This document shows, piece after piece, positions 9,642 through 41,968 of a DNA stretch of 41,968 bases (position 1 is the first letter of the stretch; every line of letters starts with the position of its first letter). The notes under the pieces were generated by a model. The model searched no databases. It had not been told where the DNA came from and saw only the letters and a list, made by a program, of their open reading frames with translations. The stretch is taken from positions 1 through 41,968 of the forward strand of contig JBBISH010000047.1 in assembly GCA_037441385.1 (NCBI GenBank). The letters run 5' to 3'. Both the position numbers and the translations under genes were made by a program. Source of the stretch: Myxococcales bacterium. Its GTDB lineage: Bacteria; Myxococcota_A; UBA9042.

Positions 9642-10457
9642 TTAATTGCAGGCCTTCGACTTCGACTCGGCCTCGTCGTCGGTCTTCCACTTGACGGTGT
9701 TGTCGCGGAAGCACGTGGCGCTCTGGAACTTGCCCGTCACGGTGTACTCGACGTGCAGGCCTTCGAGCCGGTTCGAGATGTAGCGCTCTTCGTACTTCTT
9801 TTTGCCGCTCTCCATCCACACGGTGTGCTGGCCTTCGCGCTTGCCGTCTTTGTGCTCGTATTCCTCTTTCTTCTTGCCGTCTGCGAAGTACCACGTGGTG
9901 GGTCCGTGGCGGCCGCCGTCTTTCCAGCCGCTCTCTTCGGTCTTCTTGCCGTCGCTGTCAAAGTACACCGCGTGGCCGTGCTTCTTGCCGTTCTTGTAGT
10001 CGACTTCGCTTTTCTTCTTGCCGTCTTTGTACCACTCGAGGCACTTGCCCTCTTCCTGATCGTCTTTGAACTGGCACTCTTCTTTCTTTTGCGCGTTTTC
10101 GTACCACGCCAGCCGCTTGCCGTCGCGCTTGCCGTTCTTGTACCAGGTCTCGGTCTTTTTCTGGCCGCTGTCGTACCAAAACACCCAGGCGCCCTCTTTG
10201 TTGTAGCTGGGGTGGTAGCAGTAGCGCTCGGTCTTGGTGCGGTGCAGCGACGTGCCGGCCGGGCAGGCGCCGTCGGCGTCTTCGGTCGGGGCCTGATCCT
10301 GCGGCGACGTGGGCGCCTTGGGGATCGCTTTGCCTGCCGCGTGGGCTGTGGGGGCAGCTAGGGTCGCGGCGCCCGCCAACAGGAGCGCGCTGAGCCAGCG
10401 GTGGTGGCGCGCGCGGCCAAACGTTGCCGAATCGAACCCAGCTTTGCCAAACATCAT
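9642..10457 (-). CDS. Exported MORN-variant repeat protein (YwqK-like)
   Basis: Signal-like segment followed by repeats of WYxxGxKKxExxYKxGKxxG. Confidence 0.85.
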   Translation of the reverse strand: MMFGKAGFDSATFGRARHHRWLSALLLAGAATLAAPTAHAAGKAIPKAPTSPQDQAPTEDADGACPAGTSLHRTKTERYCYHPSYNKEGAWVFWYDSGQKKTETWYKNGKRDGKRLAWYENAQKKEECQFKDDQEEGKCLEWYKDGKKKSEVDYKNGKKHGHAVYFDSDGKKTEESGWKDGGRHGPTTWYFADGKKKEEYEHKDGKREGQHTVWMESGKKKYEERYISNRLEGLHVEYTVTGKFQSATCFRDNTVKWKTDDEAESKSKACN

Positions 10458-24599: not shown

Positions 24600-25886
24600 G
24601 TGACACACGTGGCTTGCTGGCACCGCCCCAACCGTTTGTTGCGCCGATTGTGGCGGCTATTGCCGGCGCTGGCGGCCTTGGGACTGGCCGCGTGCGGCGA
24701 CAATCCCGGTCTGCCCGAAGACACCGGCCTCGCTGTGCGCTACCCAATGGCGCTGGCGGCGGTGCCGTCGGGCGAACTGCTCTTTGTCGTCGGCGCCAAC
24801 TTCGACCGGGCTTTCCGCGCCGGCAAGGTGCGCGTCCTGGACACCACCCGCGACGTCTTTGTGCCGGGCTCGCTCGAGATCCCGGGCTACGCGGGCGGGG
24901 TGGCCCTGCAATACCCCGAGGCCAGCACACCCACCGCGGGCGGCTCCAACCCGGCCTTGCCCGAGCGGATGCTCGTGACCTCGCGCGACGACGACAGCAT
25001 CAGCTGGGCCAGCTTTGACAACAAGAGCGCCAGCCTCAGCTGCGGCAGCCACGACGCCTACGGCCGCTGCGACAGCGGACACCGCTTCGGCTTCCCCGAG
25101 GACACCACGCCGATCGGCAATGATCCCATGGGCATCGAGGTCGTGCCGTGGGATCCGGGCTACTGGCGGGTCACCGTCGTGTCGTCCGCCTCGGCCAAAG
25201 CCACCGTCTTGCGCATGGACAGCAAGGGCCACTTCGACGTCGTGGACCAAATCGCTTTGTCCACGGGCCTCTACGGCGTCAAGACGGCGCCCGGCACCGG
25301 CCGTACCTACATCTCGACCATCGGCGCGCCCTACCTGCATGTCCTCCGCGTGGACGCCGATCCAAGCCGCAAGACGGGCTACAAGGTCGTGGCTGAGCCC
25401 ACCCTGGTGCTGCCCTCGCTCCTTGCGTCGTCGTACGGGCGCGGACTGGCCCTTTCTTCAGACGGCGCCCGCCTTTACGTGGCGGATCGCAGCCCGCAGG
25501 CGGTGCTGGAGATCGACGTGACGCCGGGACCCTCGGGCGCGCCGCGCAACGCTATCGCCGCCGTGATGACCATTGGCCCTGGACCGTCGGAGATCGCCGT
25601 GGCGCCCACCGGCCCCAACGGCCGCGATCTGCTGTATGTCAGCTGCTTTGGCGACGACTCGGTGTGGGTGCTCGACCCGTACCTGCGCCAGACCGTGGAC
25701 ACCATTCGCATGCCGCACGGTCCCTACGCACTGGCCGCGGTCCACGTCGCCGACCAGGGCCAGACGCAAAAGCAGTGGAAGCTCTACGCGGCGCTCTTTG
25801 GCGCGCACAAGCTGGCGGTGGTGCCGATCGACCCCACCTCGCCGATGCGCAACACGGTGCAGAACCTGCTGACGGGGAACCCATGA
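24600..25886 (+). CDS. Lipoprotein, YncE-like beta-propeller
   Basis: Lipobox LAAC. Blade motifs GRGLALSSDGARLYVADR and GPGPSEIAV..LLYVSCFGDDSVWVLD. Confidence 0.8.
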   Translation: MTHVACWHRPNRLLRRLWRLLPALAALGLAACGDNPGLPEDTGLAVRYPMALAAVPSGELLFVVGANFDRAFRAGKVRVLDTTRDVFVPGSLEIPGYAGGVALQYPEASTPTAGGSNPALPERMLVTSRDDDSISWASFDNKSASLSCGSHDAYGRCDSGHRFGFPEDTTPIGNDPMGIEVVPWDPGYWRVTVVSSASAKATVLRMDSKGHFDVVDQIALSTGLYGVKTAPGTGRTYISTIGAPYLHVLRVDADPSRKTGYKVVAEPTLVLPSLLASSYGRGLALSSDGARLYVADRSPQAVLEIDVTPGPSGAPRNAIAAVMTIGPGPSEIAVAPTGPNGRDLLYVSCFGDDSVWVLDPYLRQTVDTIRMPHGPYALAAVHVADQGQTQKQWKLYAALFGAHKLAVVPIDPTSPMRNTVQNLLTGNP

Positions 25887-28534
25887 AGCGGCCGAGTTCG
25901 TTCCCCTTTGGGGCGGTGATTGCGCTGGCCGCGCTCGCGCTGGCGGCCTGCACCCAGACCACGACGCCGGTGCTGCGTGGGCTGAGCGGCGGTCGATCGA
26001 TCGCGTTGGCCTGCGTCGACTCCAAGGGCCTGCACGACGACTTTGCCTGCACCAGCGATGGTACGGTGCGCGCGCTGGTGGGCGGCGGGTCCAAGGGCAC
26101 GTTGTCGCTGGCCATTCCCAGCGGGCCCAGCTGGGTCGACCTGTCGTCGCTGGTGCCTGGGCTGACGCCGCTCCGCGTGCCGGGGCCGCCAGTGGCGCTC
26201 GCCGTGGACGCCACCGGGAGCCAGGCTTTTGCCGCGATCTCGGCCGGGACTGGGGCGCAGATCGCCCGAATCGCGCTGAGTTCGCTGCCCAGCGGCTCGA
26301 TCAAGTACCTGGACAGCGTGAAGGTGGACTACGAGCCGACGGACCTGACGATCGTTCAGCGCGGCACGTCGTATTGGCTGGTAGTGGCCGACCCGAACGG
26401 GCAGCAACTGCACGCCGCCGAGCTGGCCACCTTTGGCGCCACCGCGCAATGGACAACGTGGTCGGTGCCCGGCAGCCCGGCGAGCCTGGCCTGGTTGCCC
26501 GCCAAGAAACAGCTGTGGGTGGGCCACGTTCAGCACGGCTACGTCACCGTGATCGATGTCACTACCGGGGCGGTGGTCGGCACCCCGATCTCGATCGACG
26601 CCGCCTGCCGCGATGGCTTGGACAACGACGGCGACGGCTTGGTCGACCGCATGGACACGGGCTGCGACGGCCCCGACGACGTGAGCGAGACCGGCGCTGA
26701 AGTGGGCAACTCCCTGTGCAGCAACGGCATCGACGACGACGGCGACGGCCAGACCGACGCGGCTGACCTGGGCTGCCAGGCCGCGGCGGTGGCCGATGGC
26801 GTGGTCGACGGCTGCCGCAACGGCAAGGACGACGACGGCGACGGCAAGACCGACTTCCCCGACGACCCCGGTTGCGCCGGCTTTGCCGACTCCAGCGAAA
26901 ACAGCGACGCCGCACCCTGCGCCGATGGCCGCGACAACGACGGCGATGGCCAAACCGATCTTGCCGACAGCGACTGCCAGGGCAGCCCGGCCGGCACCGA
27001 GTGGCCCAACCCGCAGACGGTGCAACCCAGCGCGGTGGCAAGCGCTTTGCCCTGCGCCAACGGCCTGGACGACGACGGCGATGGCCTGACCGACCTGGAC
27101 GACAGCGGTTGCTTCAACAGCGCCAGCGGCAGCGAATCCGGCCCAGACATGGCCCCGGCGGCACGTATCGCGGCGTCGTTCGACGGTCGCTGGGTCGCTG
27201 TAGCTCACCAAGGCCGCCGCGAATTGCTGCTCATCGACGCGGCGTCGCGGACCCTGCTGCTGCCCAAGCGCGGAGAGACCGTGCCGTATCTGCGCACTTC
27301 GCGCCTGGACGAGCGCGACGGCGTCATGGGCCTGGCCCTGGGGGCACCGGTAACCGCCATCGCGCCCATCACCTACAGCGGCCGGTCCGCGTTTGCGGCC
27401 GTTACCACTCCGGGCGGTCTGTTCGTGGTCCGACCCGCGGGCGACGACGCCAGCCTGGCCACGGTGCAGCTGGTGCCCTCGGCCACGCAGACCGCGACCA
27501 CCGTGGGCAAACCGGCACTCGTCATCGGCGGGACTGCCGTCGATTTGGGTGCTTCGGTGCCGACCCGCTATGCCGCGTTGGGGCCGCTGCGCCTCACTTC
27601 CACGGCCGCGGGCACCAACTACTACGGCGTCCTGCCCAGCACCGAGACCTATGAACACCGTACCGAGCAATGGCGCCTGACGTTCCAGGGCCTGCTGCCT
27701 GGCGGCCAGCGCAGCACCGGCCAATGGCGCGGGCCGGGCCGCCTGCACGACCCGACTGCCGATTTTTGTCAGTTGGGCATCGTGCCGGGCGATCTCGTGG
27801 TCTTTGCCGCGTCGAGTCAGGCCGGCTGCCCCAGCAAGCCGGTCGCGGTACCGGTCTTGGCTGTCTATGGCGATACCCTTGAGCTCGACACCGCCGGCGT
27901 GCGCGAAGACATCGTGCTCACCACCGCCGACCAGACCAGCTACGACCTGGCCAGCAACGCGGCTTCGCTGCTCAAGCCGGCCAGCCTGCCGCCGCCGCAG
28001 TGCGCCGCGGCTGGGCAAGTCGCCTACAGCGTGCGCTCGGCCGATTGGCTGCTGGTGGGGAGCCGCAGCGGGCTGCTCAGCAGCCGCGTGGTTCGCGATG
28101 GCCGCTGCAGCGACCTGCCAGCCACAGAGCTGCTGGGCGCGCGCCTGACCGAGCCCAAGCTCCGCGCGCAGAGCAACGGCACCCCGCAGCGCCCCGCGTC
28201 GTGCCCTTATGCCGGCGGCGTGCTCGACAGCGCCTTTGTTCCCACGCCGACGTCCACCCCGATGTTCGCCGGTCTGCAGATTCAGCCGGGGTGTCAAAAC
28301 CACACCGACGCCTCGGGCAAGCCGGTGGTGGGCGTGCTGCCGTCCCTGCGCGACGAGACCTGGATCTTCAACGTGACCGCCGGCTTCCGGCCACGAGTGA
28401 CGGCCGTGGGCTCGGCGCCGACGGCGGTGGTCTCGGGCCCGGGCCTGGCGCGCGCCTATGTGGTCGATGGTGGCGCGGCGACCTTGGGCGTCGTCGAGAT
28501 TAGCACCGGCAACTTGCTGGCAACGCTGCAATAG
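25883..28534 (+). CDS. Large lipoprotein: beta-propeller with an inserted Cys/Asp-rich repeat array
   Basis: ATGA overlap with the previous gene, lipobox LAAC, propeller-like blades, and five C-x-[DN]-G-x-D-[DN]-DGDG-xx-D...C repeats. Confidence 0.82.
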   Translation: MKRPSSFPFGAVIALAALALAACTQTTTPVLRGLSGGRSIALACVDSKGLHDDFACTSDGTVRALVGGGSKGTLSLAIPSGPSWVDLSSLVPGLTPLRVPGPPVALAVDATGSQAFAAISAGTGAQIARIALSSLPSGSIKYLDSVKVDYEPTDLTIVQRGTSYWLVVADPNGQQLHAAELATFGATAQWTTWSVPGSPASLAWLPAKKQLWVGHVQHGYVTVIDVTTGAVVGTPISIDAACRDGLDNDGDGLVDRMDTGCDGPDDVSETGAEVGNSLCSNGIDDDGDGQTDAADLGCQAAAVADGVVDGCRNGKDDDGDGKTDFPDDPGCAGFADSSENSDAAPCADGRDNDGDGQTDLADSDCQGSPAGTEWPNPQTVQPSAVASALPCANGLDDDGDGLTDLDDSGCFNSASGSESGPDMAPAARIAASFDGRWVAVAHQGRRELLLIDAASRTLLLPKRGETVPYLRTSRLDERDGVMGLALGAPVTAIAPITYSGRSAFAAVTTPGGLFVVRPAGDDASLATVQLVPSATQTATTVGKPALVIGGTAVDLGASVPTRYAALGPLRLTSTAAGTNYYGVLPSTETYEHRTEQWRLTFQGLLPGGQRSTGQWRGPGRLHDPTADFCQLGIVPGDLVVFAASSQAGCPSKPVAVPVLAVYGDTLELDTAGVREDIVLTTADQTSYDLASNAASLLKPASLPPPQCAAAGQVAYSVRSADWLLVGSRSGLLSSRVVRDGRCSDLPATELLGARLTEPKLRAQSNGTPQRPASCPYAGGVLDSAFVPTPTSTPMFAGLQIQPGCQNHTDASGKPVVGVLPSLRDETWIFNVTAGFRPRVTAVGSAPTAVVSGPGLARAYVVDGGAATLGVVEISTGNLLATLQ
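26606..27112 (+). repeat. Five coding CxDGxDNDGDGxxD..C repeats (putative Ca/metal-binding)
   Basis: CRDGLDNDGDGLVD, CSNGIDDDGDGQTD, CRNGKDDDGDGKTD, CADGRDNDGDGQTD, CANGLDDDGDGLTD. Confidence 0.88.
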
Positions 28535-36268: not shown

Positions 36269-37945
36269 ATGAGAACCATTGACGTGCGCCTGCCGGCTGA
36301 GCCGGGCGGCCCCACCCCAGAGACCCATCCCGAGTTGCTGGCCCGCACCGCCGAGGCCCTGGGCCTCACGCCCGCCGACCTGGGCAGCGTGGCCGTGCGC
36401 CGCCGTTCGCTGGACGTGCGCCGCCGTCGCGAACCGACTTGGGTGCTGCGGGTCGACGCGTTCCTGACCAGCGAAACCCCGCCCGACGATCCGCTGCCGC
36501 CGCTGGTGCGTCCGCGACATTTGGCCAAGTCAAATCGGGACTTGCGGCCTATCATCGTCGGTGCCGGGCCGGCCGGACTGTTTGCGCTATTGGCCTTTGC
36601 CGATGCCGGGATCGCCTGCACGCTGATCGACCGCGGTGGCCCGGTCGAGACCCGCAACCTGGCGGTGCGCGATCTGCGTGTGCATGGGCAACTCAACCCC
36701 GAGTCCAACCTGTGCTTTGGCGAGGGCGGCGCCGGCACCTACTCGGACGGCAAGCTGTACACGCGCAGCAAGCACCCGCGCGTCCGCGAGGTCTACGAAC
36801 GCCTGGTGGCGCTGGGCGCCGGTCGCGACATCTTGGTGCACGCGCACCCGCACATCGGCACCAACCGCTTGATCAAGATGCTCAAGGTGTTGCGCGAGGC
36901 GATGCTGGAGGCCGGCCACACCCTCCACTTTGGTCGGCGCGTCGACGATTTGCTGATCGACACCAACACCGCGCCCCCCAGCGTGCAAGGCGTCATCCTG
37001 GACGATGGCAGCGAAATTCGCGGTGGCCCCGTGATCCTGGCGACGGGCCACTCCGCGCGCGACACCTACAAGATGTTGGCCGGCCACGGCGTGGCGATGG
37101 AGCGCAAGGACTTTGCCGTCGGCGCCCGCGTCGAGCATCCGCAGCACCTGGTCGACACCGTGCAACTGGGCCAACTGGCAGGCGATGCCGTCGTGGGGCC
37201 GGCCGAGTATTTCGTGGCGCAGACCGTGCCCGGCGGGCGCGGCGTGTACTCGTTCTGCATGTGTCCGGGCGGCTTCATCCTGCCTTCGCCGACCACGGCC
37301 GGCTGTTTGAACGTCAACGGCATGTCCAACTCGAACCGCGGCAGCGGCTACGCGAACGCCGCCCTGGTCGCTCAGCTGAAGGCCAGCGAGTTCTACTTCG
37401 CCAAGCCCGGCGATCTGGACGGCGATCCCGAGTTCGGCGCCCACGTCGCGGGCGGGGCGCTCTTGGGCGTGGCCCTGCAAAACCGCTTGGAGAAAGCTTG
37501 TTTCGTCGCCGGCGGCCAGAACTACTCGGCGCCGGCCCAGTATCTGACCGACTTTGCCCAAGGCCGCGCTTCCAGCGAGCTTCCCGCCCACTACACCTAC
37601 CGGCCGGGGCTGGTGCCGGGGCGCATTGACCAGTTGCTGCCGCCGCGCCTGGCCCGCGATCTGCAGCTGGGCGCCCGCCAGATCGATCGCCTGCAGTTCC
37701 GCGGCTACCTGTCGCGCGAGGCCGTGGTCGTGGGCGTCGAGACGACGACGTCGAGCCCGGTGCGGCTGATCCGCGGCGCCGATCGCCAGTCTGTGTCGCA
37801 TGTTGGCCTGTATCCGTGTGCCGAGGGGGCCGGCTACGCCGGGGGCATCGTCAGCTCGGCGATCGACGGCTTGGAAGCGGCCGAAGCGATCCTGGCGGCG
37901 GCAGGCCTGGTTACGCGCGCCGCTGACGCTCGGTCCCCGGAGTAA
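36269..37945 (+). CDS. FAD-dependent oxidoreductase
   Basis: IVGAGPAGLFA, FGEGGAGTYSDGKL, YSFCMCPGG, GLYPCAEGAGYAGGIVSSAIDG. Confidence 0.92.
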   Translation: MRTIDVRLPAEPGGPTPETHPELLARTAEALGLTPADLGSVAVRRRSLDVRRRREPTWVLRVDAFLTSETPPDDPLPPLVRPRHLAKSNRDLRPIIVGAGPAGLFALLAFADAGIACTLIDRGGPVETRNLAVRDLRVHGQLNPESNLCFGEGGAGTYSDGKLYTRSKHPRVREVYERLVALGAGRDILVHAHPHIGTNRLIKMLKVLREAMLEAGHTLHFGRRVDDLLIDTNTAPPSVQGVILDDGSEIRGGPVILATGHSARDTYKMLAGHGVAMERKDFAVGARVEHPQHLVDTVQLGQLAGDAVVGPAEYFVAQTVPGGRGVYSFCMCPGGFILPSPTTAGCLNVNGMSNSNRGSGYANAALVAQLKASEFYFAKPGDLDGDPEFGAHVAGGALLGVALQNRLEKACFVAGGQNYSAPAQYLTDFAQGRASSELPAHYTYRPGLVPGRIDQLLPPRLARDLQLGARQIDRLQFRGYLSREAVVVGVETTTSSPVRLIRGADRQSVSHVGLYPCAEGAGYAGGIVSSAIDGLEAAEAILAAAGLVTRAADARSPE

Positions 37946-39305
37946 TCGCCAGCATTTCCGGAGCCTTGTCGCGCACGGCCTGCAGGTAATAGTCGGGCTC
38001 GCGCAGGGCCTCGAGCCGCCCGGCGTCGCACTCGGCCTCCAGCCACTGCTGGATCCGCCCCAGCCACGGCCCGGCCTGCAGCTGCGTCTGCTCCAGCACG
38101 TAGGTGCCCAGCCCCTTGGGCAACGGCGGCACGCGCTGGGTCTCGGCGATGATCTCTGGGATACGTCCAGCCAATTCCGCCGTCAGCCCCTTTACTTCTG
38201 CGATACGCCCGGCGCGCTTGGTGGTCCAGTCCGAGCGCGAGAAGGCCAGCACATCGTCCAAGTGGTCGCCCAGCTCGCGCACCAAGCGCCGCACCGCGCT
38301 GTCGGTCCAGTCGTTCAAGTAGGCATTGGCGCGGGCGTGGTGGGCGATCACGTAGGTGACGCGATCACGGAGCTCGGTCGGCAACTGCAGCCGCGCCGCC
38401 ACCCCTTCCATCAGCAGCGCGCCCACGGCTTCGTGGCCAAAGAAGTGGACCTTGCCGCCTCGCACTGTCCGCGTCAGCACCTTGCCGGTGTCGTGCATCA
38501 GCGCCGACCAGCGTACCACCAGGCGCGGCGGACACTTCTCCACCACCTCCAGCGTGTGGCTCCAAATGTCCTTGTGGTGCAGCGGGCAGCTCTTGTGGAA
38601 GCCGGACATCGCCAGCGCCTCGGGCACCATCACCGTCATCGCGCCCAGATCCGCCAGTAGCTGCAGGCCCTTGGCCGCGTGCGGCCCCAACAGCACCGTA
38701 TGCAGCGCCCGCCGCCAGGTAGGGCGATCGACCAAGAGCCAGCTCGCCGGATCGCGCCGCAGCGTCCGCACCACCTCGTGCGAGGGCTGCAGCCCCGTCC
38801 ACGCCGCCACCGCCGGCCAGCGCAATGCCTCGCCAAGGCTCAGCCCCGCCTCGCCTTTGCGCGGCCAGCCGGTCTGCCAGCGCAGGCGCCCTTGCTCCAC
38901 ATCGGCCAGCGACTCACCCAGCCAAGTCCCGTCGCCCAGTTGCGCGACCGCCAAGGCGCGGATCGGCTCGTCGGTCAGCCACTGCGCGACCACGTCGGAC
39001 CAGGTGCCGCTGTCCGACCCCACTTCGATCTGCAGGGGCAGTCCCGCCGGTGGCGGCGGCGCGTCCGGCCGAGTGAGCACGCGCCAGAGGCAGAACTCCT
39101 CAAGAAGTTCATGGTGATCGGGTAGTGCCGCGGGGTTGAGCACCCAGTCCGCAGCCAGGCCCTGAACGGCCGGCCAGCCGCGCAGGGCACAGTCGCCGGC
39201 CGCCGTCATCCACGTGCGCAGCGCGGTCATTTGTTCTGGTGTTCCAGCAGGGTAGACCCACTCGTTGCCCAGCGCCTCGCGCTCTTGACTGCCCACCACG
39301 CGCAC
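37911..39305 (-). CDS. HD-domain protein resembling the C-terminal half of CCA-adding/poly(A) polymerase enzymes
   Basis: HHKDIWSHTLEVV, SALMHDTGK, HFFGHEAVGA, WTDSAVRRL, LQAGPWLGRI. Start uncertain (39305 or 39299). Confidence 0.8.
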   Translation of the reverse strand: MRVVGSQEREALGNEWVYPAGTPEQMTALRTWMTAAGDCALRGWPAVQGLAADWVLNPAALPDHHELLEEFCLWRVLTRPDAPPPPAGLPLQIEVGSDSGTWSDVVAQWLTDEPIRALAVAQLGDGTWLGESLADVEQGRLRWQTGWPRKGEAGLSLGEALRWPAVAAWTGLQPSHEVVRTLRRDPASWLLVDRPTWRRALHTVLLGPHAAKGLQLLADLGAMTVMVPEALAMSGFHKSCPLHHKDIWSHTLEVVEKCPPRLVVRWSALMHDTGKVLTRTVRGGKVHFFGHEAVGALLMEGVAARLQLPTELRDRVTYVIAHHARANAYLNDWTDSAVRRLVRELGDHLDDVLAFSRSDWTTKRAGRIAEVKGLTAELAGRIPEIIAETQRVPPLPKGLGTYVLEQTQLQAGPWLGRIQQWLEAECDAGRLEALREPDYYLQAVRDKAPEMLAITPGTERQRRA

Positions 39306-39390
39306 CTCCCGCCAGCTGTGGACTTGGCGGCGGCGGCGGTGTAACCGGCCCGGCGGTCGCGGTCAAGGGGTTGCGAAAAGCACTTGCTGG

Positions 39391-39422
39391 TTGACACCAC
39401 TGCGGGCCGATGGTACTACAAT
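39391..39422 (+). promoter_or_regulatory. sigma70-type promoter candidate for the leader and HxS peptide
   Basis: Perfect TTGACA at 39391. TG-G-TACTAC lies at 17-nt spacing, overlapped by TACAAT (39417-39422) at 20-nt spacing. Confidence 0.55.
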
Positions 39423-39424
39423 TG

Positions 39425-39770
39425 AGGAGTCGCGTTGCCTTCCTCCGTCCCCCCGGGGTAGGCAGTGGGGCGACCGACGAGCAGGTTGCCCGCGAAAGCG
39501 ACAAAACCGGCGGAATCGTCCGCACCAAATGGCTTCAGGGTCGCGCACTTTGGTTCGCGGCCAGCCCGGTCCGGCCGGGAGCTGAATCCAGCAACGTTGA
39601 GTTGAGACGAGTAGAAAATACGAGTTCGGTTGGGAAGTTGTGTATCCCCCAGTGACCGGTCGGCCGCCGCGTCGTTACCCCAGCGACCTTGGCCGAGCAC
39701 CGCAACGACCTGACACCCAGACCCGCAGTTCGGCAACCGTCGGGCCCGGGAAGCGACAACCAAGGACCAG
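39425..39770 (+). ncRNA. Candidate structured leader or ncRNA (family unassigned)
   Basis: No convincing ORF. Successive helices found by eye include GTCGC/GCGAC with GTTGCCT/AGGCAGT, a CGC-GAAA-GCG tetraloop, GCGGA/TCCGC, a three-way junction at 39531-39589, and CCTTGG/CCAAGG. Confidence 0.4.
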
Positions 39771-39824
39771 CCGCCAACGCCTGCGAGCGCCTCAAAACGC
39801 CAGAGGGCGCCTAAAGGGGAGACG

Positions 39825-40139
39825 ATGAAGAAGACCCTTCCGAAGTTGAAGAAAAGCGCAGCCGACTTCCTGTCTCCGGAAGAGGGGGCGATCAGCGAGA
39901 AGCAGGAAGCGCGCGTGTCGACCTTCTTGACCTTGTCGAGCGGCGACGGCAGCGTGCTGCCCGGCGGCGACGTGAACCTGTCGGCCGAGCACTGCAGCCA
40001 CGGCTCGCACGGTTCGCACGGTTCGCACGGCAGCCACGGTTCGCACGGCAGCCACGGCTCGCACGGCAGCCACGGTTCGCACGGTAGCCACGGCTCGCAC
40101 GGCTCGCACGGCAGCCACGGTTCGCACGGTTCCTGGTAG
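39825..40139 (+). CDS. His-Xaa-Ser repeat peptide (HxsA-like RiPP precursor)
   Basis: AAGGGGAG RBS. 55-aa leader (MKKTLPKLKKSAADFLSPEEGAISEK...) followed by HCS, 15 x HGS, W and stop. Confidence 0.88.
   Translation: MKKTLPKLKKSAADFLSPEEGAISEKQEARVSTFLTLSSGDGSVLPGGDVNLSAEHCSHGSHGSHGSHGSHGSHGSHGSHGSHGSHGSHGSHGSHGSHGSHGSW
39990..40133 (+). repeat. 16 x 9-bp coding tandem repeat (CAC-GGY-TCS/AGC)
   Basis: Counted directly: one CACTGCAGC and 15 His-Gly-Ser units that differ only by synonymous codons. Confidence 0.97.
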
Positions 40140-40248
40140 CTGGCGACCTGCCTCGCAGGCCGGTGGTGCAGAACGGACGCGCTCCGGCCAGCCGGTCTGC
40201 ACCAGAACCGGAAAGCGAGGCGATTTCGCCGCGGCCTTGGCCGAGTCC

Positions 40249-40288
40249 CATGGCATTCGGGGTTCTTCCCGAGTGCCATGCCTTTTTT
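40249..40288 (+). terminator. Intrinsic (rho-independent) terminator
   Basis: CATGGCATTCGGG-GTTCTT-CCCGAGTGCCATG (13-bp stem, one G-U) followed by CCTTTTTT. Confidence 0.85.
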
Positions 40289-40521
40289 GCACCCCTACCC
40301 CTTCACTTCCGCTCTGGACCGCCGTCTCTCCTTCGCGTTGACGGAAGCCGCTGGCCGGTGCCCGTAGAGGGAGTCGGCCAACTATTGGGCACTCGTTCTG
40401 AAGTTCGTTCTGCCGATCGCGTCTCGAACGCCCAGTGGGGCGCAAGCGAACGCCTACCGCGACGCCACGCGCCGAGTTCGACGGCTTGGATGCGCGGGGA
40501 AAGTCCAAACTGATCGGCCAT

Positions 40522-41058
40522 CTAGCCGAGCTCCAGACCCAGGCCCTGGGCCAGCGGGCTCCGCAGCCGTTCGAGCAGACGTTTGTGGGCGCGCCCCAAC
40601 GCATCGGGGCTCTCGCCGGCCAAGGCCGCGGCCTCGTTCAAGCTGCGATCGCCGTAGTACACTTCGCGCAGGACCAGCGCCTCGCGGGTGCTCAGATCGC
40701 GGCCGATCTGCTGCAGCACCTGGCGCACAGCCACCGGCGTAGAGGTGCGCTGGACCGACGCGGTGGTCTGGCGCGCCGCAAGCAGGCGCCGCAGGTGGGC
40801 TAGGCGCTGTTCGCGGCGCAGCAGATCGCGAGGTTGGCCGTACATGCGCCAATAGGCGTGGGTCAGCGCGCGCGGGCCGCGGGCGGGATCGTAGCGGGCC
40901 AGACTTTGGGCAAAACCGAACAGGGCCTCAGCGCGGAGCTCGCCCGCCGCTTCGCCACTGTGGGTCAGCCGGCCCGCGATCGAACCGGCCAAGGTCAGAA
41001 AGTCCAACGGGCGGCTGTGGCAGCGGGTCTGGAGGGCGAGCGTTGGGGTCGCGGTCAC
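40522..41058 (-). CDS. Small sigma-70 family factor (FliA/WhiG-like region 2 plus region 4)
   Basis: GGGAG upstream of GTG 41058. Region 2 ELRAEALFGFAQSLARYDPARG..THAYWRMYGQ.RDLLRR. Region 4 LSTREALVLREVYYGDRSLNEAAALAGES...HKRLLERLR. Confidence 0.8.
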   Translation of the reverse strand: MTATPTLALQTRCHSRPLDFLTLAGSIAGRLTHSGEAAGELRAEALFGFAQSLARYDPARGPRALTHAYWRMYGQPRDLLRREQRLAHLRRLLAARQTTASVQRTSTPVAVRQVLQQIGRDLSTREALVLREVYYGDRSLNEAAALAGESPDALGRAHKRLLERLRSPLAQGLGLELG

Positions 41059-41299
41059 GATCGAGCTCCCAGGCGTCGAGGGTCGGCGCGGCTGGCAGAA
41101 ACCCAAGCAAGATGTATGCCGGCCCAGCGGATCGTGCCGATTGCCCTTTGGTTGCGCCGGGATCGATCACCGATCGTGAAGTGAGCGAGCCACAGCGCCC
41201 GGGGCCGGCAGTCCCCAGGTCCGGCCGTCGCGATTTCGTTGACGCCGGCTGCGCTTCGATTATCGTCACCTCGCCGGCCCGAGCCGGCCGCAGGGCGCG

Positions 41300-41968
41300 A
41301 TGCACAACAGCAAGAATCGAGTGGGTAACATACGGAATTGTTTGACGGTCCTGGCCGCGCTGGTCGGAATGGCCGGCTGCGAAGGCCAAGAGACCCCCAA
41401 GAAGCCCGATGAGGCGGCGGCTCCCCAGGCCGGTCCCGCCCCAGTGGCGGCGGCCGCGGCGGCACCTGCTCCCAAGCTCGCCGACATCGTTCAGAAAATC
41501 GCGACTGCCGCCAAAAAGGCTGGCGACGACGAAGCCGCCACGGTCGCCAAGCAGCTGAAGTCCGCGGGTGCCGACAAGAAGGTGCTGGAGCTGGCGGCGC
41601 CGGCGGGCACGCTGCGTTTCTATAGCCGCGACGGGACGTTGAGCAAGGACGGCGCCGACGTCTTGGCGTTGCTGGCCGACCTCGATCGCCACGGCATCGA
41701 CAAGTCGGGCTATCGACTGGGCCAGATCGATCAGGCGACCGCGGCTGTGACCCAAGCCTTTGCCGAGGAGCGCAAGATCCTGCTGACGCTAGAGAAACAG
41801 CCGCGGGCCGCGCTGGTGGCGGCGGCGGCGGCGCTGTGGCTGCGCGGTGGCGAGGGCAGTGCGGTGTCGCTGTCGCGCGCCGGGGCCGAGCAACTGGGCG
41901 ACAACGGACTGCGCGCCCTGGATGCGGCCCTACCGGCGCTGGCGCCAGCGGTGCAGAAGTCGCGCGAG
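41300..41968 (+). CDS. Lipoprotein, possibly an L,D-transpeptidase (YcbB-like scaffold); 3'-partial
   Basis: Not in the ORF track because it runs off the window. Translation MHNSKNRVGNIRNCLTVLAALVGMAGC (lipobox). LLADLDRHGIDKSGYRL resembles the L,D-transpeptidase scaffold HGL..DY motif; no catalytic domain is visible in the window. Confidence 0.65.
   Translation, partial: MHNSKNRVGNIRNCLTVLAALVGMAGCEGQETPKKPDEAAAPQAGPAPVAAAAAAPAPKLADIVQKIATAAKKAGDDEAATVAKQLKSAGADKKVLELAAPAGTLRFYSRDGTLSKDGADVLALLADLDRHGIDKSGYRLGQIDQATAAVTQAFAEERKILLTLEKQPRAALVAAAAALWLRGGEGSAVSLSRAGAEQLGDNGLRALDAALPALAPAVQKSRE

Follow-up and report, generated by a model that had tools for sequence, protein, structure and literature searches.

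An HxsA4-family peptide encoded apart from Hxs enzyme genes at a conserved locus in Myxococcota

The window under study, a 41,968-nucleotide stretch of DNA from a Myxococcales bacterium, encodes a 104-residue peptide that is assigned by profile match to the HxsA4 family of His-Xaa-Ser repeat proteins. The gene belongs to a conserved HxsA4 clade in Myxococcota that is unlinked to Hxs enzyme genes. This clade is new, as is the evidence, unusually clean, that selection acts on the sequence of the peptide as well as on its unit number. Comparison of related loci showed that the gene has long been kept at a housekeeping locus without Hxs enzyme genes in this clade. The balance of the evidence leans modestly towards a ribosomally produced precursor of the HxsA4 branch whose maturation in trans would depend on Hxs enzymes from other parts of the genome. 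The clade represents a clean natural experiment in which the same core peptide occurs both enzyme-linked and unlinked and, if matured in trans, the peptide would provide a convenient minimal substrate with 16 identical sites for HxsB/HxsC chemistry on H-x-S units. The positions of the gene, its parts and its neighbors are listed in Table 1.

Table 1. Coordinates in the window of the peptide gene, its component parts and the adjacent genes.
Feature	Position	Strand	Basis or remark
HxsA4-family gene	39825..40139	+	104 codons plus TAG; NF038313 match
Leader, residues 1-55	39825..39989	+	without a transmembrane-grade hydrophobic stretch
Leader motif LPKLKKSAADFLSPEEGAIS, residues 5-24, putative recognition element	39837..39896	+	family alignment
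Core, HCS + 15 x HGS + W, 49 residues, 16 His	39990..40136	+	read from the translation
Shine-Dalgarno-like AAGGGGAG	39814..39821	+	ends 3 nt before ATG
Intrinsic-terminator-like hairpin plus T run	40249..40290	+	terminator/promoter scan
HD-domain protein, like the C-terminal half of CCA-adding enzymes	37911..39305	-	TIGR02692, 116 bits, below the cutoff of 438
ECF-type sigma factor	40522..41106	-	TIGR02937, 47 bits (cutoff 42.9); Sigma70_r2
L,D-transpeptidase-like lipoprotein, N-terminal part	41300..41968	+	runs off the window; domains of orthologues

Translation bore out the initial annotation, which had described a 55-residue leader followed by an HCS-(HGS)15-W core with 16 consecutive H-x-S triplets. 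The triplets occupy residues 56-103 and precede the terminal Trp, and the core possesses a single Cys in addition to its 16 His residues. All 16 of the core His codons are CAC, the Gly codons are GGC (8) and GGT (7), and the Ser codons are TCG (9), AGC (6) and TCC (1). Tandem Repeats Finder called a 9-nt period of 14.6 copies in the repeat DNA and likewise a 36-nt period of 3.2 copies. As matches over the 9-nt period amount to only 70%, the repeat is far more regular in the peptide than at the DNA level. The GC3 value of the peptide frame is 0.88 compared to 0.76 for the longest antisense open reading frame which, together with the whole-protein match to a curated family model, establishes the plus-strand frame as a real reading frame. 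The antisense open reading frames across the repeat (39416..40279, 39792..40604 and 39892..40251, all minus) matched no family and were lower in GC3, and were discarded as repeat artefacts.

The ribosome-binding site attributed to the gene at the outset corresponds to a Shine-Dalgarno-like sequence (Table 1), and a GGGGA motif precedes the ATG in nine of 13 aligned orthologous upstream regions. Besides the conserved ribosome-binding site, these 13 regions have no common promoter or operator, and a sigma-70 promoter scan returned no sites. A TTGACA box upstream of the gene was seen in only a few orthologues. A long intergenic interval (39306-39824; 519 nt) separates the peptide gene from the divergent HD-domain gene; it has no Rfam match and shows little conservation outside close relatives. 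The gene also had been credited with its own terminator, which agrees with a hairpin at 40249-40280 of 14 pairs, eight of them G-C, followed by CCTTTTTTGC. Three terminator-like sites were observed in the region compared to 1.2 expected, and this stem is by far the longest.

The peptide matched the NCBIfam model NF038313 (His-Xaa-Ser repeat protein HxsA4) with 91.6 bits against a cutoff of 55, and the match spans residues 5-104 of the peptide and positions 2-93 of the 93 in the profile. The model for classical HxsA, TIGR03979, was not matched by the peptide (6.5 bits, E = 7.3, against a cutoff of 121.65). Thus, the original proposal of a His-Xaa-Ser precursor-like peptide stands, but the suggested relationship to the TIGR03979 family does not. 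The HxsA3 model NF038309, whose members have the leader motif in common with the window peptide, scored 42.5 bits on residues 5-90, which is below its cutoff of 65 and therefore places the peptide outside HxsA3; the cutoff of the NCBIfam model for HxsA2 likewise was not reached. In view of the NF038313 match, and of a leader motif and HxS array that are common to thirty aligned family sequences (alignment A1), the peptide is a member of an already catalogued family and not of a new one. In terms of annotation, the gene is real and its name should be HxsA4. A large protein collection yielded 293 relatives at E ≤ 1e-3, a few of which carry the NCBI name HxsA4, and those so named are from Omnitrophota, Elusimicrobiales and Actinobacteria MAGs. 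Aligned relatives terminate in GQW, GSW, GGWC or SY. The window peptide has the same N-terminal motif, tandem HxS core and aromatic C-terminus as the HxsA4 family, but differs in being unlinked to HxsB/HxsC4, in lacking a hydrophobic segment after the motif, and in a fully homogeneous core, with HGS only after HCS, that is fixed at 16 units in the clade. The best 15-residue Kyte-Doolittle mean in the leader is 0.91 compared to 1.6-1.9 in relatives from Omnitrophota and Elusimicrobia.

The only Pfam model to match the peptide was Collagen (PF01391), with 34.5 bits against a threshold of 27.2. This score counts in favor of the gene being a relic or artefact, that is, a decaying orphan, a repeat expanded by slippage or during assembly, or a collagen-like G-X-Y repeat, and the breakage of several contigs inside the repeat points in the same direction, as does a regular 18-nt codon pattern in two orthologues (L010 and L011) that suggests recent DNA homogenization. 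However, His and Ser are invariant across the family alignment whereas the middle residue varies (G/A/S/C/T/N/V), so that the Collagen match reflects three-residue periodicity and not homology. A conserved Gly every third residue is not the defining feature of the family, and the collagen-like reading was rejected.

Selection on the gene was assessed in the 11 complete genes of the syntenic clade, comprising the window and ten loci. Sixteen units are present in ten of the 11 genes and 12 units in the other (L016). The 49-residue core is identical in ten genes with no amino acid differences over 45 pairs, but 6-46 of the 147 nucleotides differ per pair (mean 26.5). The pattern of GGC/GGT and TCG/AGC/TCC codons is distinct in every gene, and L010 and L011 have a regular 18-nt pattern yet still possess 16 units. 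The orthologue comparison much strengthens the initial suggestion that synonymous variation at the Gly and Ser codons denotes selection on the peptide. The peptides of the window and L001 are identical, with neighboring proteins that are only 79-93% identical. Median pairwise dN/dS in the leader was 0.18 among the 11 orthologues (49 of 55 pairs computable; the pairs are not independent), and dS was 0.6-2.7 in most pairs that include the window. As the core is identical in protein despite the nucleotide differences, and leader dN/dS is ~0.18, strong purifying selection acts on the leader as well as on the core, and the gene is neither the product of slippage nor an assembly artefact. Thus, a relic, slippage product or assembly expansion already is contradicted by core identity across ten assemblies and by selection on the leader, and the relic or artefact explanation as a whole is very improbable. 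Breaks or gaps at the repeat were noted in the assemblies of L003 and L014 (end), L009, L013, L015, L029 and L038 (start), and L021 (N run). Because assemblies break inside the HGS repeat, genes of the family often are cut short where a contig ends, with loss of the unit count.

Related loci were collected from species-representative genomes, at least 44 in number and each with flanks of at most 10 kb. At least 12 (L001-L007, L010, L011, L014, L016 and L017), all from Myxococcota-type MAGs, are syntenic with the window in the order FAD-dependent gene, HD-domain gene (minus), peptide gene (plus), usually an ECF sigma gene (minus), and L,D-transpeptidase gene. The HD-domain gene is divergent from the peptide gene, adjoins it in at least 12 loci, and specifies proteins whose identity to that of the window ranges from 89% down to 48%. 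The ECF sigma gene is convergent with the peptide gene and had a tblastn match (E<1e-8) in six of the 12 syntenic loci listed. The L,D-transpeptidase-like gene was matched in at least nine loci; its full-length orthologues in L001 and L017 have YkuD and PG_binding_1 domains, and SurA-like, UvrC, Ser/Thr kinase and RNase E/G genes lie downstream in these two loci. One syntenic record (L006) is titled Klebsiella pneumoniae, but its synteny is of the Myxococcota type with a GC content of 0.586, and the organism label looks wrong. In a second unlinked type, represented by at least three loci (L008, L027 and L031), the gene is located between trxB/nth and topA or ccmE genes and encodes 16, 16 and 32 units. 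An open reading frame of 166-184 codons lies directly upstream of the unlinked HxsA4 gene in L031 (9332-9829) and L008 (9331-9882); the two products are 56% identical (E = 2e-59) and have no Pfam or NCBIfam match.

The claim that the window lacks a radical SAM gene was upheld, as no radical SAM domain was found by Pfam or NCBIfam in its 29 open reading frames and 15 Hxs radical SAM and HxsD proteins used as tblastn queries had no match in it. No Hxs-type radical SAM gene was present in the 12 syntenic loci listed, for 10 kb on either side where the contig allows, and the interval without a radical SAM gene covers ~40 kb upstream (window) and 10 kb downstream (orthologues). The genes of the window have housekeeping or envelope roles, S1, tgt, glyQ/glyS, xseA, trmFO and xth among them, and a fused MFS/spermidine-synthase-like protein and an FAD-dependent protein also are encoded. 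A search of the whole window with Rfam gave no matches. The window further encodes, at 25664-28531 (plus), a 956-residue protein that scored 102.3 bits (cutoff 41) with NF033662, a model of acidic double-disulfide repeats, and that has no match in Pfam.

Hxs-type radical SAM genes adjoin the peptide gene in 20 of the 44 loci listed, as revealed by the comparison of homologue neighborhoods that the initial annotation had advocated. HxsB-like matches are present in 14 of these 20 enzyme-linked loci, and full-length HxsB genes scored 536.6 (L019), 504.5 (L012), 476.5 (L034) and 554.1 (L021) bits against a cutoff of 370. The L021 locus also includes HxsD (70.9 bits; cutoff 50) in the order HxsD-HxsB-HxsA4, and HxsC and HxsC4-like genes likewise occur in enzyme-linked loci. 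Many loci of this group were fetched in an orientation that puts the true peptide gene on the minus strand. PADLOC gave no match for the peptide and detected only generic viperin-like radical SAM similarity for HxsB and HxsC of the fetched loci. In two further loci (L038 and L041), the HxS peptide is genuine but the surrounding sequence is insufficient for sorting, and seven of the 44 listed (L024, L026, L032, L033, L036, L043 and L044) are not family members.

In Myxococcota, Binatia and related MAGs, the cores of enzyme-linked peptides consist of A-Q-H-C-S (or H-M-S, or H-A-S), (HGS)n, and W or QW, with 12-37 units among the loci listed, and many of these peptides have soluble leaders. Because the linked peptides are of the same design, the homogeneous HGS core is typical of the sub-branch and is not a peculiarity of the window, and the characterization of the core as 'unusually long and homogeneous' had to be abandoned: HCS/HMS-(HGS)n-W cores are found next to HxsB. 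The number of units, fixed at 16 in the unlinked clade versus 12-37 in linked relatives, hints at a different constraint and counts against maturation in trans. Derivation of the window locus from an L021-like locus by deletion of hxsDB in place also was considered, but is not supported: no common ancestry of the loci was seen, as the two ECF sigma factors and the next open reading frames are dissimilar (E = 1.6 and 2.3).

The leader carries a motif with the consensus LPxIKKxIKxFLxSEEGKI in alignment A1. Phe-15 and Glu-20 are invariant in A1 and Leu-16 in alignments A4 and A6; across unlinked and HxsB-linked peptides, Pro-6, Phe-15 and Glu-20 are at least 90% conserved and Leu-16 is invariant. 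The leader of L021, the nearest cis-linked relative among the loci listed, is 44% identical over 72 residues. At the Cys of the first unit and at the terminal Trp, the clade does not depart from its enzyme-linked relatives, and the combination of a conserved 55-residue leader and an invariant core matches the general architecture of RiPP precursors. A protein search with the leader alone (residues 1-55), as the initial annotation had advised, returned three candidates, none at E ≤ 0.01, and no wider leader family.

These features suggest a scheme in which the N-terminal motif LPxhKKxxxDFLSxEEGxIS would act as the handle bound by Hxs maturases encoded elsewhere. The enzymes then may modify the H-x-S units of the core, and the leader may be cleaved off close to a conserved junction, A-(E/Q)-H-C-S, which would free a 49-residue product with 16 His residues that ends in Trp. 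Continued recognition by Hxs enzymes appears plausible because linked relatives have the conserved leader residues, the Cys of the first unit and the final Trp in common with the clade. In favor of maturation in trans, relatives with the same core directly adjoin genes for HxsB (a SPASM radical SAM protein), HxsD and HxsC/HxsC4-like proteins. One enzyme set that serves several precursors also has precedent, as L020 (9636-10361) and L023 (10098-10742), both minus, each hold two tandem precursor genes, of 16 and 13 units and of 13 and 18 units, respectively, with one Hxs enzyme set. Conserved leaders on scattered precursor genes similarly characterize Nif11/NHLP-leader peptides and prochlorosins, which are RiPP precursors encoded away from their maturases and for which maturation in trans is documented, whereas that of the window peptide is presumptive. 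Counting against maturation in trans, no Hxs enzyme gene is nearby in the window or the 12 syntenic loci listed. Moreover, no second HxS-repeat locus from the 12 genomes with unlinked genes was among the 44 loci listed, which counts weakly because most of the records are incomplete MAGs. A complex prediction for HxsB of L021 with residues 1-70 of the window peptide (score 0.02; mark 0.32) favors neither side.

A stand-alone role offers an alternative to maturation in trans: the peptide may be a former Hxs precursor whose maturases were lost, or were never needed in this lineage, and that works unmodified in the cytoplasm. With a length tuned to 16 units, such a His-rich peptide might buffer or chaperone Ni, Zn, Cu or Co, or might bind nucleic acids as a polycation at low pH. 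The lack of radical SAM genes near the gene in the window and in 12 orthologous loci is consistent with this proposal, as are the stable position among housekeeping genes, the want of a signal- or transmembrane-grade hydrophobic stretch, and the constancy of unit number (16 in ten of 11 genes, and 16, 16 and 32 in the second unlinked type, versus 12-37 in linked peptides). His-rich peptides bind metals, and the core offers 16 His and one Cys. However, a metal buffer would need neither the leader motif, the first-unit Cys nor the terminal Trp, all of which are under purifying selection and match those of enzyme-linked relatives. In addition, none of the neighboring genes was recognized as encoding a metal transporter, a metallochaperone or a regulator of metal response. 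A CorE-like metal-sensing sigma factor was considered and dropped, as the neighboring sigma sequence has no Cys-rich tail. Overall, a stand-alone role is unlikely, albeit with an appreciable chance of being correct. Its fuller form, in which a domesticated Hxs precursor was freed from its maturases, has no membrane segment, and is held at 16 units as an unmodified cytoplasmic 16-histidine device, is slightly more doubtful still; if correct, the peptide would exemplify a RiPP precursor exapted as a functional small protein. By description, the peptide resembles Helicobacter Hpn, a His-rich metal-binding protein that also is small and dominated by histidine. Proteins of the Hpn type are not known to have a RiPP-like leader or strict three-residue periodicity.

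Leader conservation without nearby Hxs genes also might be explained by a different partner, such as another class of maturase, a protease or an exporter, that recognizes the same leader. There is a precedent for this possibility: a peptide with His-Xaa-Ser motifs in Mucilaginibacter is reported to be encoded beside radical SAM enzymes that are unrelated to HxsB/HxsC (PMC9062424). However, the conserved neighbors of the gene in the clade (HD-domain, ECF sigma, L,D-transpeptidase, SurA-like, UvrC and kinase) include no candidate, and all informative relatives among the loci listed are tied to enzymes of the Hxs type. A non-Hxs partner therefore is improbable.

Hxs systems reportedly were predicted in 2011, and their original description is said to be that of Haft and Basu. 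One branch received a function only in 2026, when HxsABCD of E. coli and Klebsiella was described as an HXS antiphage system that blocks the entry of phage DNA (Li et al., Nat Commun 2026, PMC13128918). In that account, HxsA combines five repeats with a peptidoglycan-binding domain, the order hxsD-B-C-A is found in 99.6% of HXS systems, and HxsA of E. coli undergoes N-terminal processing (PMC13128918). A change of +8 Da at a single SHRSS motif in the E. coli protein is the only chemistry reported for any Hxs system (PMC13128918). The window peptide resembles the HXS system, as portrayed there, in the use of HxS repeats as a functional array and in a tie at the family level to maturation by HxsB/HxsC/HxsD, but has 16 repeats and no neighboring hxs genes. 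Pfam detected no peptidoglycan-binding domain in the peptide, and the window has no hxsD-B-C-A operon. Judged by profile and domain content, the peptide thus is neither a classical HxsA nor a member of the HXS antiphage system. The term HxsA4 was absent from the literature on Hxs systems that was searched.

Several of the fetched loci have features of separate note. In L012 (9989-10549), from a Gracilibacteria MAG, the HxsA4 gene contains many in-frame TGA codons that are read as Gly under code 25. Its neighbors are the HxsB gene (504.5 bits), a gene for a U32-like peptidase and two short radical SAM genes, and the system therefore is present in a recoded CPR lineage. The L033 locus (9851-10312) encodes a secreted-looking protein of Pirellulales with RGSHGSHGSHGSHGG, GSxGG repeats and a tail rich in Cys and acidic residues; the protein is rich in His, Gly and Ser but has no Hxs leader, and no Hxs enzymes are nearby. 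Finally, L039 (9950-10312), from the MAG of a Woesearchaeota archaeon, encodes an HxsA3/HxsA4-like peptide for which both scores are below the cutoff; its gene adjoins B12-binding and SPASM radical SAM genes, with DNA polymerase D and Cdc6 genes beside them.
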